From NCBI GenBank assembly GCA_040143965.1, contig JASJQH010006931.1, positions 1-36,877 on the forward strand: 36,877 nt of DNA. Direction: 5' to 3'. Within the stretch, counting starts at the first letter, position 1, and every line of letters begins with the position of its first letter. Positions 1 through 27,101 of the stretch are shown piece after piece. The position numbers and the translations under genes were made by a program. The notes beneath the pieces were generated by a model, which had not been told where the DNA came from, ran no database searches, and was given only the letters and a program-made list of their open reading frames with translations. This DNA comes from Basidiobolus ranarum (Eukaryota).

Positions 1-1944
1 ACATCACCAACAATCGCAACCACTTCGCCCTTGTTGACTATCAGGGAGAATCCCTTGATGGTGGGATCGGAACTACCACTCCAACAAAAGGTAGCATTTT
101 TCTACATAAGAGAGGAGTTGAGTGTTTGATTTAAGTAGATGTGGGTAATACTAGTCCATTTACCAAATCAATTTTGGTCCTCTCGTCAGCAGGAGGGTGC
201 TCAGGGGGAGAAGGAGGTTTGACCTCCGGTTGAAGCAAAAACTGGTTGATTCTTTCGAACGATATGAAAGCCCCTGTGAGGAATAGTTGTTATTAATCGA
301 GATTCACAAGATAGCGTCGATGATCTTAATCATACCATAGGTTGTTCTAACAGCTGTTGGGAGCATGACGAAAGGATATCTAAAGTAATGTTCATTAGTC
401 ACTTACTCATTAGCATGAGGTTATCTCAATATTACCTCAATGTATTAAAAGTGGAGAGTATAGTGAACACCAAAGTAGCAGTCAGTTCTCTCTTATAACC
501 GATCTTTTCAAGCATAACGAAGCATATAACTGTCAGCAGAATCGGTGTTCCAAAAATCAAAAGAGCGCTCCAACATTTAACAAGTAATCCACGACGAAGA
601 TGAATCATTTCTTGAGCTCTTGCTTTAGTGACTCTATCGCAGAAGAACGATTCCCAAGCATGGAATTTAATTAGCTTTATGGCTGTGAGGATTTCCGACA
701 TTAGATAAACACGGTAGGTAGTAGTCTGTGACATATCTGTTGATAGTCTGGAGGTGAGTTGGCCTAAAGTATATTGAAGCGGAAACAAGACAATCAAGAT
801 AACGGCAGCTAAAGTATACAAGGATGCTGTGTGTAAATTAGGTGGTCATATTGTGCGATTAGAAAGCAGCATTTACCGGGCACTGCAGCAAGCTTTAGTT
901 CGTAACCAGCAATGGCGATTACAGCTACGAAATGGTTAGTAAAGTCCATAAAACCTAAAGGGATTTCTGTGTATTACCAATAATTTCCAAAGCTGTGCCC
1001 CACAAATAATGAAAATTCACGCAAGCTTCAGCTACACTAGTAGAGTACAAAACATGGGTTAAGCCATTATATATCTATAATCAGATGAGGAATCACTCAA
1101 TACCGATTGCAATCTTCAGCAACCAGGTTCACTTGAAGATAAACTACGTTAATACGGCAAGATTTTACAAAAATCAGAATAGATAAAACGTTTACTTACC
1201 AACATCTCCGATGCCGCCTTGGACTGTTATGAGTTTTAACGATTTGCGGTATATCAGCACCATTAATGCAGCACGAACCTAGGCCATTAAACATATCAAT
1301 ATCATCCGTACTCTTTGACACACAATGAACTAATTGACAAACCTGGATACCGATTCGCGTACACTCAGCGGATAGTTGATGAATGCAGATACTGGAGAAG
1401 ATTGCGGTCAAAAACAAAACTACAGCATATATGTGTGCATTAACATAGGAAGAACGGTCTGTTTCTGATAAAACGTTGGTGCTATAGCGAATCAACTGTT
1501 TCAAAAAATAATACGCTCCGAGGTATATGAAAACAGCCCAAAATATTTTGTAGATTCCAATCAGCATATATTTTCCTTTGAATGTCACGAAAAGAGCACG
1601 TCTGATTGAAGGGACACTAATAAATTAACAATAATCAGCATCGTCAATCTTGACTACTTCTTTCTGCCCTCCTGGAGGGCACCTTGCAATATATCCAGGA
1701 AAGAAGTTCAGCTAATAATTTCTTACCCATCTTTAGGATGCATGCATTCCTTGTGCCAGCTCTTTTCGAGTTTAGAACCGACTACTTTAGCAGTTTCAGA
1801 TTTTCTCAACGTCAACAAATCCAAACCAGTGTCGATAGATTTACATTCAGTCAACAATCGAAAGACCCATACGAAAAACCAATTGGAAAGAAAGTTGGAA
1901 CCACCTAGTTCAATGGTCTCTGGGTGACCGATTTTCCTGGACAT
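1..1944 (-). CDS. ABCC/MRP-type ABC transporter, 5' portion (multi-exon; continues beyond the left edge)
   Basis: ATG at 1944. N-terminal lasso-like SNFLSNWFFVWV; spliced TMD1 text includes GDVVNLVAEDCNRVAEAC, SEILTAIKLIKFHAWE, FNTLRYPF and ISFERINQFLL; NBD1 begins at the window edge (KGEVVAIVGD, start of Walker A). No TMD0 visible. Confidence 0.93.
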
Positions 1945-2543
1945 TCGTAGCTACACTGAATCGATAATACAACAGAATTCGTTTGATGACAAGTATAAAG
2001 GTATATAGGGTAAATATCGGGCAAAAAAGAGAAACACTTGCGAAAGTGAAAAGGCTCTGAAGGCTTTAAGCAACAACCAGCCAAACCTTACTTTCAACTA
2101 AGAAAAAAGGAATTAGATACAGAATGAAGGTCACTATATCAATGGCTGAAGGAAAATTCCAATTTGAATAAAATGAAGCTCACAATGTATTAAACTTGGC
2201 ATCGATTTTGAAAATCTAAGATTCAATCAATAGACAAATAATGGGCCAAAAAGAAAATTCTCCTAGTCCGTACAGTTTCCCACAATTTCTCAAAACATTA
2301 TCGGCCTAGAATACAATTCCAACGTCAAACGGAAGGTCACAGCTCTCATGATTGTTCGAGGAATAGAATTTGATCGACACACAACGATTAGATGTTGTGT
2401 TTCTGCATTGTTTGAATCGTCGGAGCAATTGCGAAACTAAGGATATTTGGGAGCATTACAAAGGACCATTACAAATGTCCGATAATTTGTTATCTTCCTT
2501 GGAATGTTTGGTTTGATTATAAGCTTATCTTACAGGTTTACCC

Positions 2544-2583
2544 GCATTACCTCTGACACGTAGCATTACCGCTGACACGTAGC
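2544..2583. repeat. Two copies of a 19-bp unit (gcattacc[t/g]ctgacacgta)
   Basis: Direct tandem duplication read from the sequence, downstream of the RNase T2 AATAAA. Confidence 0.85.
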
Positions 2584-2668
2584 TCACAGGTGATTCAATT
2601 GGATTTATTACGACAAATAGTTGAATGGGTAAACAGTGGTTTTTTGGTAAACATTGCTTCTTTGGCTT

Positions 2669-3593
2669 CTATTTCACTGGGTATGTAATCGAGCTACTGC
2701 ATGAATGGGAGCCCTTGAAACTATCGGGAACATACGTGTCCTTGCCCTTGACATGGAAATAAGTCCAGATTTCATTGAGAGTACCGGATTTGCACTTGAA
2801 GTAAGGAGTTACGCCCAGTGCCTTTTTGATAGCATCGGCCATCAAGGTTTGCTTGTAGGTGCCCCCCGGCTTGATGCCAGCAGCAGCCAGAGCACCATAG
2901 AAGTTATATTTTGCACGAAGGCTCAATACAGTTTGGAAATAATCTTTCATATCCTCATATTCCTCATAGTCTGACCCATAACAGTCGGGATCCAAAGTAG
3001 AGACACAAGTTCCGTGCTTGGCCCATTCATGCTCCCTACATTTGCGATAATTGATTTACGGTAATTAATAATGGGGAATCCGTGAACTATCAAAGTACCA
3101 CTAACCAGAAAGCACCGTTATCATCCTTGTACGACGGCCAGTAAGTATTCATCTGATTGTAAAGACTGCTGTTAGAGCTTTGGAGAATACCATCAATATC
3201 GGTATAGGCACGAGAGGTGTCACACCCTTCACTTGGGCCTTGTCCTCCGGAGCTATATAGTAGATAAAAGATGGCTCAGGATTCAATCGTTTTAAATATA
3301 AATTGATATATATGATATACCAAGTATTTGGCCATAAGCCATGAAGAGTAAAGGCATCCTTGGGCCCAAGAGCTTTGATCCACTAAGAGACGGTCAGGAA
3401 ATAAACGAATATATCAAACTCAGAATAAGACTCGTACCTGCTGGGTAAGAACGATAACTCCGTAAGAAGGAACACAGCACGTGTCGGCACCAGGAGCGGC
3501 ACATGAAATTCCATCAATGGGTCAGGAATCTTGTGCAATAACGGTAGCCAAAGAAGCTAAGGCGCCCAAAGTCAGGAAGTTCAGAAGCTTCAT
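2669..3593 (-). CDS. Secreted ribonuclease T2 with an in-frame TGA at codon 24 (nonsense allele or recoded stop)
   Basis: Exons 3593-3438, 3382-3321, 3252-3106, 3035-2669, all GT-AG. Signal peptide MKLLNFLTLGALASLATVIA; CAS I FTLHGLWP; CAS II FWEHEWAKHGTC; DTCC motif. TGA at 3522-3524. Confidence 0.92.
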
Positions 3594-3644
3594 TCTTGAT
3601 AGAAGTGAGGATAGGATACTGTTTGGTTGTGTTAAGACTCCCCC

Positions 3645-3651
3645 TTTTATA
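3645..3651 (-). promoter_or_regulatory. TATA box of the RNase T2 gene
   Basis: TATAAAA about 50 nt upstream of the ATG at 3593. Confidence 0.55.
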
Positions 3652-4386
3652 ACTTTTCGCCATTCAATAAGTGTAAACTCCGTGAAAGATATCTACCAAG
3701 TTGAAACCTGAGCAACGTTGCTACATGAATCAGTATCGAAGTCGCGCATCCCATAGAATCTTGATTTTACTGTATTAAGGAAAGGCACCAAGGGAATGGT
3801 TTATCCATAGGTTCGGGGACAATACGAGCCCAATTGCAGGTGATTAGAGCAGTCTTCAACGTGGGATTCAGATGCTACAACAGATTCAATGGCCAATAAA
3901 ACTGGGTAATCTATTCTCATTCGCTTGAGCTATCTCTTCGTGAACAGTAACAGAACATAGGTTGGTTAAATCTTCCCATTCCTAATTAGTGTTGGACTTA
4001 TGAGTCGGTGATCTTGTATCTTGTAGTTCCCATATATGGCGTCGATCACCTTGACAATGTGACTTAACATGAAGCTGAGTTTCTGTGGGAACGAGTCGTA
4101 AGAAACGTCATATAACATAATCCGATCAATATTATCTACTTATAAAGAACACGCCCATTGACAATTCCGATATCGTTTATTAATTATCTCGAATGGACAA
4201 TCCCATAGTTTTTGAGTAATTAATTAATTAACGGAGATGCTCTTTCTCGTAACCAAAACATCCACAGAGTACTTCTTAGTATATTGTCTATGTTGGAGAC
4301 AGAAAGAGAGAAAAATTTACAGTTACTCAAATAAAAGTGGTCATGAAATAGGCTACGAATTTAAAATTAATCATTGTATTTTCAGT

Positions 4387-11629: not shown

Positions 11630-12303
11630 ATGAACCGCCTATTGCAGATCGTTTTAAGCCTCTTATTAGCCTTCAATTTTGTCGCTGCTAACATCGAAAT
11701 CACCTTTCCAGTTGATCATGAATATCGAGCTGGAGTCCAATACCCCATCACTTGGTCAGTACATTAATATTCACTACAGACAACTAACTTGAACTAACCG
11801 AGTGAGCTTTTAGGAAGGAAATTGGTGGCGCACCTACTCCCGCACTTTTCACTATTAACCTTGTTTACGGAAAAGAAACTGACCTCCAAGTCCAAAGTCT
11901 TATTGTCCAAAACACTGATTCTAAGACTGGTATTTATTTATGGTATATCCTCCCCTCTACTAGACCTAGTACCGAGTATGCCATCGAAATTACAAATGGT
12001 CAAGATTATTGGTACAGCCATTACTTTACTATTTCGAACCCTGGCCAGCCTAGTTTGTCCTCAATTCCTAACCCAGCCCCAACTTCATCTACCTCTGACG
12101 CTAAGGAAGCTTCCGATAAAAAGAATCACCAAGACAGTGATAGCCAGAACAACAGCACTACTTCAAGCAGCACTACTTCAAGCAGCACTGCCTCAAGCAT
12201 CGCTACCTCTGTCAAGAAATCCTCAGATAAAAAGAGTAATGGTTTCTTGGTTAACGCAGGGTTTATTGGTGTTGTTGGCGTGATTACATCTCTCTTCATG
12301 TAA
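11630..12303 (+). CDS. GPI-anchored Ser/Thr-rich cell-wall protein, Kre9/KNH-like N-terminal domain (copy A, 204 aa)
   Basis: Exons 11630-11754 and 11814-12303. Signal peptide; AGVQYPITW...YAIEI...YSHYFTI domain; S/T stalk; KSNG followed by a hydrophobic C-terminal tail. Confidence 0.87.
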
Positions 12304-14381: not shown

Positions 14382-15021
14382 ATGAATCGCCTGTTGCTGA
14401 TCGTTTTAGGCTTTGCTTTGGCCTTCAATCTTGTTGCCGCTAACTTCGAAGTTGACTCACTTGACAAAAAAATCTCAGCAGGATCTACTTACATTATCAC
14501 TTGGTCAGTACATCAACATTCACTATAGACAATTTACCTCAACTAACGCGTGAGTTTCTAGGACGGAAACTGGTGGTACACCTGCTACTCCCGAACTTCT
14601 CAATATCAACCTTCTGTATGGACCATCAGCCAAACTCCAGCTAAAACAACCTATCATCCAAGGTATTCCTTCTAAACGGGGCAGGTATCCGTGGTGGATT
14701 TCATCCAAAATGAACCCTAGTTCTCAATATGTTATCGAAATTGGAAATGAAACATTTCATCAGTACAGTCATTACTTCACCATTACAAACCCAAATATGC
14801 CTAGTTTGAGTCCATATAATAGCTCAGCATCAGCCCCAACTTCCTCTTCATCTACCTCTGACGCTAAGGAAACTTCCGATAAAAAGAATCACCACGACAG
14901 TGATAACCAGAACAACAACACTACATCTGTCCAGAAATCCTCGGATAACAAGAGTAACGGTTTCTTGGTTAGCGCTGGATTCATCGGTGTTGTTGGTGTG
15001 ATTACATCTCTCTTCATGTAG
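14382..15021 (+). CDS. GPI-anchored Ser/Thr-rich cell-wall protein, Kre9/KNH-like N-terminal domain (copy B, 193 aa)
   Basis: Exons 14382-14503 and 14562-15021. Same intron position and architecture as copy A; open frame throughout. Confidence 0.87.
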
Positions 15022-21599: not shown

Positions 21600-24500
21600 T
21601 TATTTCTTAGTCTTTTCTTTGGATATTAAGATTTTAACCAGTAACTGTAACCACCATTCTTGCTCTTCCGACAAGGGGGAGTTAGGTTTGTAGATACGTT
21701 GCGCAAGAATAAGGTCTAATTGATGTTGAATCCACTTGAATATGACTGCAGTTCGGGCAAAACATTTAAAATGAATCCAGCTGTTGACGGAGAGGAGTTG
21801 AATATCGTGCTAATGTCAAACAATGAGTGGAAGTTCTTTGAAATAGTGGAGCTACCATCAAAAATACCTTAATGTCCAATTTATCTCCGAAAAGCACAAC
21901 CGAATATTGATCTACAGCACTTGTTTCCCAAACAAATACTTTACTAGACTTCATCAACGTGTGATACACAAACCAGTTACTGGAATAAATGGGATCTGAG
22001 CCGCGAGGTCGATAGTTGATAGAGGAAGGATGCATAAACACGGAATCGTCATTAGGTCCGGTTGTGTATTGGCGAGTATCCGAATGGTAGCGAACGATGT
22101 TGGGATATAAACCAGCGGTTATTACGGCAGTTATCACCGAAACGTGGCCAGTATATGTGTTGAAGCTATCAGGGATTTGGCAGAATACGACGCGTTTGCT
22201 GTATCCGCTTCTAAAGAAATGTTAAACACATAACAACGAAGAGAGGATGCAACTTCAAACACAAACCGGGCTAGAGTTTGAGCCTTTTCTTCATCGAGCT
22301 GGACAAAACCAATGGATACTAGTAATCGAAGGAATTGATTCTTCATCTCCTCAATCATAGAAAGAGTTTGGTGATTAAGGAAGTATTTGTTGCAGAAAGA
22401 CATGATTGTTCCTGGTTTGTTCGTGAGTGCGTTTTTCCATGCACAATATGCGTTGTAAACAGTCATAAAATCAGAGTCATCTAAGAAAAACCATCAATAA
22501 ACATGGGCAAAATATCGATTTCACGTACGATGGCCTACCGCTTTTAAATGATTCCCTCGCAGCATCAGCCTCTGCAGCCTTATCGAACGGCCTATTAAAT
22601 GGACTTTTGAAACTCAATGAGGCAGCTATGGTAAGAATTGGATCAAGACATTTGAATATAGCTCCGTATAGTATCATTTTTCCAATGTGGACACTGACAG
22701 GTAGGTGCGAGAGATGGACACCTAGAGTGGTGAGCTCATTTGTCTCCGGGATTAAAGCACCGACCTAGATTGGACCATTAGCATATTGCCTCAGTTATAC
22801 CATAAGGCGTAGTCAACTGACCTCCTCTAGTACGCTAACGGCATTCAATATGGCCGTGTTTGAGGGTGGATCGATGGCCATTTGGAGGAATTCAACAATG
22901 TCACCAAATTCATAGATTTTTACTCTCAAACACAGCTCTTCAAGCGGCAATCTCATGATTTCTGGGGCCTGATAGTCAGACATCTAAAGCGCATTGTCAG
23001 CACATGAAGAACACTATGCCCATACCGTGATAGATGTACCTTGTTTTCGAAACGATTTCTAGTGAAAAGATGGTAGCAGAGACCCTCCTGAACTCTTCCG
23101 GCACGACCACGTCTTTGACGAGCATTAGCTTTGGCTACGAATTCCTCTTGTAAACTAGTGATTCGTCGCTTCTCATCGAATCTGTATTGCAAAGTATCAT
23201 CAGAAAATATAAGCCGATAGTTCTCAACAACGCCCACTTACTTAATAGCCTTAACCTTTCCAGTATCAATTACGATGGTTACATCAGGAATGGTGATACC
23301 TAATGCGCACAATAGAAGTAAGCAAAATGCCGGGAGAATGGACTCTACGAATACGCCTCAACTTACCTGTTTCAGCGATATTGGTTGAGATAACAATCTT
23401 CCTAATCGGGGCCGGGGGAACATCAAAGACAGCTTGCTGATTATCAGACGAAATGGTGGAATGTAACGGCCAAATGATGAATTGCGAAGTATCTGAGAAT
23501 TTGTGATCGGCCATCAGCTGATCATACAGTTTCCGAATCTCAGGCATACCAGGGAGAAAGATCAAGATGGCACCGCTGGGTATTTCGGTTTCTTGCTTCT
23601 CAAAACACAATCGATTCAGCAGCAAAATGATCAGTTCATAATTAATCTTGTAAGGGTCGATTCGCCGGAGAACATTCTTAGTGGTGGTGGAGTAGGGAGT
23701 AGCCTCCGAATCTAGATTCAAATCATCGTATAGATCGTCACTCTCCAGAATATCCCCGGGCTCTTCTTCCCACTGGAGCCGGATTGTCTGCTGAGATCCA
23801 TGCTTTCCAGCGACGGTAATCGTACCTTCATCTACAATGGCATTAGTATGTGTGGGCTTATGTAGTATGAAATAAGAAGTCTAACCATGTCGTATCTTCT
23901 GTATTTTGCGAGCATATTCGGATTCCTCTTCCAGCATGTAATCTACACAAAAACCATTAGTAAACAAAACAAGGGAGTAGCCTGAATGCCTGCCTCATAC
24001 CAGTCTCCTCAATAGCATCCTCTAAGAATTTGACGCTTACGGGAAACGTTCTTCCTGGGACCTCAATTATTGGGCAGTTGGAAAAGTATTGAGAGAACCG
24101 AGGGGTATTCATAGTAGCGCTCATTAAAATAACTCTACAAGAACAATGTTAGTCAAACCAACAGTGTATGAACAATCTGTGAAATAAAACCCACTTCAAA
24201 TCGGGACGAATGCTTAATAGCTTTTTGAGAACAATCAACAAGAAGTCAGCTTCGAGGGTACGCTCTTGTACCTCATCGATTACGATATGCGAAATACCAT
24301 CCAGGTTACGATCACTTTCAAGACGTCGGAGTAGAATTCCGGTTGTACAGAATACAAGCATGTTGGCATCCGAGACTTTGGATCCGAGCCTGATTTGGTA
24401 TCCAACATAACCATCCTTGGTACCCAATAGGTTCTTGCTATCCCCCAGTTCGTAGGACACTCTCTGGGCGATAGAGATGGCAGAGATACGTCTGGGTTGC

Positions 24501-26485
24501 GTACAAAATACCTTACATTTGTCTCCTCGGCCTGAGGAAACCAAACTTTCAACAATAAATTGAGGAACCTGAGTACTTTTACCACAGCCGGTATCTCCAC
24601 TGATAATTACTACCTGATTGTTTTCGATTAAATCCAAGATTTCTCGGCGATACATATGAACTGGAAGCAACTTTCGATTCTCCAAAACCTTGTTATACGA
24701 TTTCTTGCATATCCGAGCCTCAAAGTTGCTCTGAAGCTGTTTCGCTGACAGGCTCGTACCATGTGATGAGCTTCTCGTGGCAGAATTCTTTGAACGAGTA
24801 GGGACTAGTCTCTGGGGCATTGTTACCTTTTCCATAGCCATGATCTCATCCGTCAAAGTTTGCAAGAATATCAAGCGTCGTCTGTTGGTTTCCTCGTTTA
24901 TATTTCTGCTCTCCGTCTCTTTCTTCTCGTCCCACTCAGCCCATATTTTCTTGAATGGAGGAGGAAGAACTCGATATAACGGCAGTTTACTGAGTTCATA
25001 AAGTGCAACTGTTGCAACATAATTCTCGGCTCCTTTGAAAGTTGTACAACTAATATCAGTCATTTGGAAGTTACGAGAAGATCCGTTGTTATACTTAATA
25101 TCAACACTCGCTTGGTTTCCAACAGGAACATTCTTGATACGATGATAAGTGATGTGAGTTCGCTTATCTTCTTTACGGCATATATCATCGAGCAAGTCTT
25201 TGGGGGATTTGCCAGTCCAGTTTGTGTAACCAACATCAATTGTAGTAACATCGTAGCTTTTTGAGGCTACAGGAGTGGAGCCAGTGGATTCTTCGGTTTC
25301 ATCATTTCCGAAAAGGTCGAATACTTCTTCATTCTCGTCCTCCTCGCTTAATGCCTGATTTTGTGACGTATTTTGTGAATCTTTCGTTTTCGTTTTCGTT
25401 TTTATATCATTCCACATGTTCTCTTGAGCTATTGAAAAGGCCTGTTGTGCCTTTTTATCGTCAAAAAAGTAATCGCCTTGTAGTACTTCCATATCATTTT
25501 TTAACTTTCGAAGCGTTTTGTTAATTACCACCTCCTCCTCCTTATTTTTAGCTTTCTTAGCTTTTGTGAGAAGCTGTTGCTGAGTAAGGTATTCCACTTT
25601 CAGAGTTGCATGCTTTAAATGAATATCTTGTTCTGCTTCCTCTTCTTCGTCGGAGCTATCGAAGTAAGCAGCGTTTAAAATTTTGGATTTGAGATCAGAA
25701 TCAACTTGGCTGTTCGGAGGTTTGGTAGCTATTACTTGTTCGACCTCTTTTACACTCTCTTCTTCTTCAGGACTCAGCTCTTCCCATGAACTTTTTGCAG
25801 TATCTTCAGACGGGGTATCTTTGGTTTCTTTTCTGTGCTCATTAGCCACAGGTGCAATAACATTTACTTTGAAATCTTCCTCAAAGTGTGCCTTGTCTCT
25901 GAACTTCATTGGTAGGTCCTCAAACTTCAGATGTAAGCACAGCCAATCCATAACTTTCGATATCTCAGTGGCCTTGGATTTCTCCATCCCCTCTTGTACG
26001 ATTTCCTCCTTAAATCCTAGCTCTAACAAAGTCAAATAGATAAAGTTGAGGTTCGATAAAACATCATCTTTGGATTGATTATCATTCTTGGGCGAATTCA
26101 AATCATTCCAAGGGTTTTTTTCAGTGGACTCCTTTATCGCTTTAACTGCTTCGTGTTCAATCTCTGATGAAAGTTGGAGAACTGGCGGAGACAGGATTTT
26201 GCTCTTTTCTAAAACTCGAGATTTTACAAAGGTATCAACCTTAAATTTACTAAGATCAGCCAGTTTATTTGCCAAAAGATTGACTTCATTTTCGACGCTA
26301 TTTAGTTTATCTTCTTCTGGATTCACTTTTTTACTCTGTTCAGTCTCAACTTTTTCAGGTACCGGTTGGGGAATGGTCTCGACTACGACTTCCTCCACTA
26401 TCTCCTCCTCTTTGACCGTTTTAGCTATACTAGTAGTAGCATAGCCTCGGTTTACAGGCTTAAGTTTGGTTTTCTTTTTCGCCAT
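21600..26485 (-). CDS. DHX29: DExH-box RNA helicase DHX29-like, multi-exon
   Basis: [34 protein letters not shown] and QRRGRAGR, plus HA2/OB regions. DHX29-type N-terminus (RGYATTS, DWLCL, WTGKSPK). TAA at 21600-21602. Confidence 0.9.
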
Positions 26486-27101
26486 GAATTAGGATTTAGC
26501 AGAACCAACTGGCTACTTAATATTGAACAGGTATGTTTGAAAAGAGCATATGCAATCTCTTATCACTCAAACTAGTTCACTGAAAATTTCTAATAAAATT
26601 GAACAGATGACAATATACATTGCCGACGTAGGATTGTTTAGTAGGATCAGGAATTGTTTATTTTAACCACTCAACCACTCAACCACTCACTCTGAATTGT
26701 ATTAGACTTTTCCAATTGATTGATCACTTGTTTGTTGGTACAATCTGAGATGATTGTGAGGGTATTCAGAACCAGGACAATGAATGCTATTCGAATAGAT
26801 TGTTGCAACTAAAAAAGCCCAGGTTTCATGTGAATTTTCGGAAAGTTTTCAACTGAAATTTGTCGAAACAATTCATTCGTAAAGATGAAACTAAAATAGG
26901 CCTTGATTGATACTCAAATAGACCTTCTATAAATGACCTTCAAACCCTTGGCCACAGCCTTCCTGTACTGAATGATGCGTTAACCTTCTCTTTCTTACAT
27001 TTTACACTTGTTTTCTTCTCCTCCAGTTGTTGGTAGTGCATAAACTAGACTTCGTTAATAAAGCTTTCCTTAATCCATTTGATTCTTGGTCACCGTAACA
27101 A

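Follow-up and report, generated by a model that had tools for sequence, protein, structure and literature searches.

A probably young nonsense codon at the first conserved cysteine of an RNase T2 paralogue in Basidiobolus ranarum

The question raised by this locus is whether an RNase T2 gene that is interrupted by a TGA, exactly where its relatives carry a conserved cysteine, is a broken copy or a gene whose stop codon is in some way read or removed. The gene lies in a stretch of 36,877 bases, one whole contig of the gut fungus B. ranarum, referred to here as the window, and runs on the minus strand from 3593 to 2669 with four exons, 243 codons and three GT-AG introns. Joining the exons by script (3593..3438 + 3382..3321 + 3252..3106 + 3035..2669) gave 732 nt, made up of 243 codons and the final TAG, and the only internal stop in the joined frame was the TGA at codon 24 (3524..3522). 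The frame opens with an ATG at 3593..3591 (minus strand), and exon 1 translates as MKLLNFLTLGALASLATVIAQDS*PIDGISCAAPGADTCCVPSYGVIVLTQQ, in which the signal peptide was called by eye. The features of the gene, all on the minus strand, are the following.

3644..3651, minus strand: putative TATA-like box TATAAAAG, by direct reading, 51 to 58 nt 5' of the ATG
3438..3593, minus strand: exon 1, from its translation, with the ATG, a hydrophobic signal-peptide-like N-terminus and the TGA at codon 24
3522..3524, minus strand: the in-frame TGA, codon 24, at the site of the first conserved Cys
C31, C39 and C40, minus strand: N-terminal Cys cluster of exon 1, from the translation
3383..3437, minus strand: intron 1, 55 nt, GTACGA..CTCTTAG, with a CTGAC branch-point-like motif inside
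3321..3382, minus strand: exon 2, with CAS I FTLHGLWP (about 3352..3329), from sequence and alignment
3253..3320, minus strand: intron 2, 68 nt, GT..AG, from the exon joining
3106..3252, minus strand: exon 3, with Met107; Pfam PF00445 at E 1.5e-4, below the cut-off
3036..3105, minus strand: intron 3, 70 nt, GT..AG; the joint matches the public protein model (P0012: NGAFW-EHEW)
2669..3035, minus strand: exon 4, with CAS II (EHEWAKHGTC) and the terminal TAG (2671..2669); Pfam PF00445, 100% identity to P0012
2604..2609, minus strand: putative AATAAA polyadenylation-like signal, by direct reading, 60 nt 3' of the stop codon

The family assignment comes from Pfam PF00445 (Ribonuclease T2; cut-off 26 bits), which matches exon 4 with 85.8 bits (E 5.1e-24). 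The exon 3 frame scores 22.4 bits (E 1.5e-4), under the 26-bit cut-off, and the 30-aa exon 1 piece has no PF00445 match; exon 1 is collinear in alignment with eight Basidiobolus RNase T2 proteins. The FTLHGLWP and FWEHEWAKHGTC blocks, which we take to be the catalytic blocks CAS I and CAS II with their histidines, both align with the paralogues, the second of them straddling the joint of exons 3 and 4. Cysteine is present at nine of the ten Cys columns conserved in the fungal subfamily, and the first column is the TGA. On sequence grounds the gene belongs to the RNase T2 family by descent, though not as a full member as encoded under the standard code, since the first of its ten cysteines is replaced by TGA. 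The next in-frame Met after the TGA is residue 107, 3' of CAS I. The initial annotation had described an otherwise intact RNase T2 gene with a single in-frame TGA at the first conserved Cys, with a TATA box, three GT-AG introns, CAS I, CAS II and AATAAA all in place and no Met before CAS I from which translation could restart; direct reading, the joined frame and the alignments described below bear out each of these points. A search of the 36,877-base window found no second RNase T2 copy. A tandem repeat was noticed by eye at 2546-2583 (minus strand), some 25 nt beyond the AATAAA; its two 19-nt units are identical but for one base.

In the public annotation the same locus looks different. The exon 4 translation is 100% identical in a protein search to a 137-aa hypothetical protein of B. 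ranarum, K7432_002163 (P0012), and this model starts at Met107, 3' of CAS I, with its exon 3/4 joint placed as modelled here. A public model that is a stump from Met107 means that the deposited assembly has the same stop, and the annotation pipeline evidently met that stop and salvaged the tail of the gene. K7432_002163 represents the C-terminal part of an RNase T2 gene of 243 codons with a stop at codon 24, and its entry ought to be marked as that of a disrupted gene or pseudogene. As it stands, the main value of the observation lies in annotation, as the public model hides the disruption.

The position of the stop was placed by alignment. Seven of the eight Basidiobolus relatives covering the site have Cys in the TGA column and one has Tyr; none of these eight copies has a stop codon there. 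A wider family alignment of 150 representatives (161 aligned domains) has Cys in this column in 86 cases, another residue in 4 and a gap in 71, or Cys in 86 of the 90 in which a residue is present. Many of these gaps belong to members whose match begins later; the alignments to solved plant RNases, for instance, start at query residues 55 to 62. The N-terminal spacing is C-x6-C-x7-CC, the kind of cysteine pattern from which the TGA had initially been assigned to a Cys position. The seven paralogues read AQ(D/K/E)SCP(I/V)D at the site, and K7432_015322 (P0014) reads DSYP. RNase Rh from Rhizopus niveus (PDB 1bol), which has five disulfides and serves as the type enzyme of fungal RNase T2, was reached through the intact paralogue P0002, which aligns with it over residues 23-243 (E 4.7e-79) with all ten of its Cys on Cys of the 1bol chain and its residue 24 on chain residue 3. 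Codon 24 of the window gene thereby corresponds to residue 3 of RNase Rh. The window gene has CAS I and CAS II, as RNase Rh does, and differs from it in carrying a stop at the Cys3-equivalent codon. In RNase Rh, Cys3 presumably pairs with Cys20, and the conserved first Cys of RNase Rh-type enzymes is a structural disulfide cysteine. The Cys codons elsewhere in the window gene are TGT (five) and TGC (four), from which the TGA differs by one third-position base. The octamer TCCTGACC, which contains the TGA (3519-3526, minus strand), recurs at 3392-3399 (minus strand) as the branch-point-like motif of intron 1; this recurrence is probably chance, because the first copy is what changed Ser-Cys-Pro codons would give.

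The eight Basidiobolus proteins that cover the site comprise five 'RNase Sy' proteins of B. meristosporus CBS 931.73 (P0001, P0003, P0004, P0015 and P0016) and three copies from B. ranarum, K7432_014085 (P0002), K7432_004067 (P0013) and K7432_015322 (P0014). There are therefore at least four RNase T2 copies in B. ranarum including the window gene, and five in B. meristosporus. These paralogues share the 243-codon architecture with the window gene, six of the eight being exactly 243 aa long, and are 74 to 80% identical to it over their full length; unlike it, all have a sense codon at position 24 (7 Cys, 1 Tyr). A search with exon 4 returned four Basidiobolus proteins with 77 to 82% identity over that exon. 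At least two of the other B. ranarum copies are intact with Cys at the site, K7432_014085 (243 aa) and K7432_004067 (262 aa). The latter is annotated with 19 extra N-terminal residues ahead of the Met that starts every other family member, and its start codon is probably mis-called. K7432_015322, on a contig of 4260 bases, has Tyr for the first Cys, and towards its end a conserved Arg is replaced by Cys. Its product is annotated as 167 aa long; the gene is possibly a further copy in decay, or else truncated where the contig stops.

None of the Basidiobolus copies is a clear orthologue of the window gene, and none of the ten inner branches of the tree is well supported; the long-branch outgroup P0029 falls within the ingroup in this tree, a position that we read as an artefact. 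A search for close proteins returned only the window gene's own truncated model. Scanning metagenomes for orthologue DNA gave 41 loci, the best of them 59% identical and none Basidiobolus-like, and a search of proteins for an intact exon 1 elsewhere, with the stop in the exon 1 query written as X, gave 1 candidate and 0 hits. A literature search for Basidiobolus together with RNase T2 found nothing.

The reading that we prefer, with a probability of about 0.7, is that a redundant RNase T2 paralogue of B. ranarum acquired a nonsense mutation not long ago, perhaps on one allele only, which would make the locus a young pseudogene or null allele. What is observed is the lesion, its place on a conserved Cys, a gene undamaged in other respects, and paralogues that are intact. 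In the proposed course of events, one paralogue of an expanded family of secreted RNase T2 enzymes ('RNase Sy', RNase Rh-type) would recently have gained a nonsense codon at its first disulfide Cys. Ribosomes would stop after 23 residues, essentially the signal peptide plus three residues, and with translation ending there the locus would yield little or no enzyme. Loss would be tolerated because the other intact copies in the B. ranarum genome could cover the function. Some basal readthrough of UGA-C would be expected, perhaps with Cys put back in, as an incidental effect and not as selected control; by analogy with yeast data the allele may for that reason be a strong hypomorph instead of an absolute null. 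B. ranarum is at least diploid, and gene duplication is a feature of its evolution, according to PMC3281927; given that ploidy, the stop may be one allele of two. The initial annotation had already put forward, as simpler than recoding, either a recent TGY-to-TGA change or an erroneous base call, and simple causes of that kind, the recent change first among them, are favoured here as well.

This reading is favoured by a disabling lesion that stands beside intact paralogues in the same genome, by a gene otherwise undamaged in its nine remaining Cys columns, in both CAS blocks and in all three GT-AG introns, and by the lack of recoding signals in the searches described below. That no second lesion is seen in the gene limits neutral drift since inactivation, so that the stop should be either young or tolerated. 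A stop would be created by 107 of the 2178 possible single substitutions in the window gene, and neutral drift since inactivation is bounded at about 8% (8.2%) of sites if no indels are assumed, and at 1.4 to 2.5% of sites at assumed indel-to-substitution ratios of 0.2 to 0.1. The lineage of the gene is clearly old and has been under selection for most of its history. Its terminal branch is 0.18 long; two intact copies of B. meristosporus have branches of 0.15 and 0.21, and the other five copies have 0.007 to 0.095. It carries 11 private substitutions at positions where four paralogues agree, compared with 5 to 9 in those paralogues, and in two of the 11 cases the site is one that two distant outgroups conserve as well. 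Branch length and private changes are at most a faint sign of relaxed constraint. Apart from the stop there is thus no clear relaxation, which fits a very young lesion and fits equally a gene still in use. The UGA-C context and the placement of the stop exactly on a Cys codon have to be taken as coincidence if the lesion is young, whereas recoding would predict them, and they count against the young-lesion reading. The Tyr at this same Cys in K7432_015322, whose product ends at 167 aa, looks like decay at the same site and like ongoing birth-and-death turnover. The window gene adds a data point on the turnover of secreted RNases in Basidiobolus, with two of at least four B. ranarum copies altered at the same Cys.

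It is unlikely that the TGA is an assembly or base-call error, with Cys as the true codon and the gene an ordinary intact RNase T2 paralogue. One third-position base is all that separates TGA from the TGT and TGC codons that the gene uses for Cys, and the rest of the gene is intact throughout. Against this, the public annotation rests on the same base, and long frames elsewhere in the window are open, for example a helicase exon of 779 aa. With lengths of 4.3 to 36.9 kb, the contigs of the family are short enough to suggest that the assembly was made from short reads, in which case consensus substitutions would be rare. We infer that the base is real.

A second explanation retains the stop and gives it a use. 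Under selected leaky readthrough, the UGA would be kept because, in the UGA-C context, a near-cognate Cys-tRNA is accepted in a small fraction of translation rounds and the normal protein results; the dose of a secreted nuclease that might do harm would in this way stay low or depend on conditions. The stop in the window is indeed followed by C, and the frame 3' of it is fully intact. UGA-C is the leakiest tetranucleotide in yeast, with the highest readthrough, and favours Cys-tRNA (PMC4748822), and Cys is one of the three residues inserted at UGA, with Trp and Arg (PMC4150775); what had been said at the outset of UGA-C as the leakiest context, and of Cys as a readthrough product, agrees with both. 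In fungi, however, the core element for efficient readthrough is given as UGA-CU, with both the +4 and the +5 position mattering, in PMC4207609, and the window has UGA-CC, with C at +5. The programmed UGA-CU cases treated there (the peroxisomal Tpi1 isoform of Ustilago maydis and others) share the C at +4 with the window gene and differ from it in having U at +5 and in placing the stop at the natural terminus. Known programmed cases extend the natural end of a protein, whereas the stop examined here is at codon 24 of 243, near the 5' end. No RNA structure stands above shuffled sequence in the 100 nt from the TGA on (z 0.00), so that no stimulating fold is found 3' of the stop. An early stop upstream of introns exposes an mRNA to nonsense-mediated decay, and this one, 5' of three introns, should do so. 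The other eight Basidiobolus copies have Cys or Tyr at the site and never TGA. We therefore regard selected readthrough as improbable, and the suggestion in the initial annotation that programmed readthrough gates the nuclease does not find support.

A more specific form of this idea, in which the UGA is kept as a leaky gate through which a small, possibly stress-tunable share of ribosomes rebuilds the exact wild-type secreted RNase T2, is more doubtful still; it would follow from poor recognition of UGA-C by eRF1 together with the preference for Cys-tRNA. If it were true, the gated copy would still supply nuclease, at a low dose or under certain conditions, instead of being dead, and the locus would show programmed readthrough close to a gene's 5' end with the ancestral residue put back. 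No such case appears in the text available from the three readthrough papers used here (PMC4748822, PMC4150775 and PMC4207609). Only a stop that is both conserved and read through would make this a natural stop-codon gate restoring an ancestral residue.

In selenocysteine recoding the UGA would specify Sec where the relatives have the disulfide Cys. A UGA aligned with the Cys of homologues, here in seven of eight Basidiobolus relatives, is the usual signature of a selenoprotein gene, and the window gene shares it with the selenoprotein genes of early-diverging fungi, some of which use Sec (bioRxiv 10.1101/314781), as the initial annotation had said. The window gene is unlike those genes in that no SECIS was found and in that RNase T2 is not among the selenoprotein families of the survey as far as its available text goes. 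The first reading had seen no SECIS either, and the searches made here agree: no SECIS family of Rfam matched 1800..3800 at E up to 10, and the permissive Rfam run over the same region returned two matches at chance level, to a snoRNA and a miRNA model. Folding of the 419 nt 3' of the terminal stop is no more stable than that of shuffled sequence (z 0.33), and a loose motif scan of the 519 nt after the stop found a single ATGA, 319 nt 3' of the stop and about 260 nt past the AATAAA, far beyond it. No tRNA gene was found in the 36,877-base window. The site itself is not known as a redox-active centre: its cysteine is a structural, disulfide-forming one, specific to the fungal subfamily. The survey of 1197 fungal genomes by Mariotti et al. 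(bioRxiv 10.1101/314781) names five species with eukaryotic Sec machinery, and Basidiobolus is not among these five and has 0 mentions in the survey's main text. A 2023 review counts nine Sec-using fungal species, seven of them Harpellales, in its available text (PMC10386755), and 11 Sec-encoding genomes of early-diverging fungi are counted by Amses et al. 2022, whose main text leaves them unnamed. With no SECIS, the sole ATGA past the AATAAA and Basidiobolus unnamed among Sec users in these texts, the initial suggestion of Sec recoding that gates the nuclease is not borne out, and we consider it extremely unlikely.

Equally little credit can be given to a removal of the stop in the RNA, either by A-to-I editing, which would turn UGA into UGG (Trp), or by an alternative intron that skips the TGA. 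Editing that corrects stop codons exists in filamentous ascomycetes, to which its description is confined in the available text of PMC11156358; the same text gives fungal editing as strongly preferring U at -1 and hairpin loops, and hence UAG or UAA. In the window the A follows a G, no hairpin stands out, and the product would have Trp and not Cys. As to splicing, one in-frame GT..AG pair does span the TGA. This candidate was rejected, as its only donor is the poor GTTATT and its use would delete 34 or 35 codons, four Cys and the end of the signal peptide. A recent nonsense change in a redundant copy accounts better for the locus than does either route.

The other frames of the window match several protein families. 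Matches to the Kre9/KNH N-terminal domain were found at 11806-12300 (plus strand, 4.4e-6) and 14554-15018 (plus strand, 1.7e-7), and judging from these domain matches the two frames are likely a tandem pair of genes related to cell-wall glucan synthesis. A DHX29-like RNA helicase gene occupies 21769-26488 on the minus strand, with matches to UBA_DHX29, DSRM_DHX29, DEAD and OB_NTP_bind. Further frames match the ABC transporter, mitochondrial carrier, arrestin, PQ-loop, HlyIII/PAQR and Yip1 families, and the window is an ordinary nuclear gene neighbourhood.
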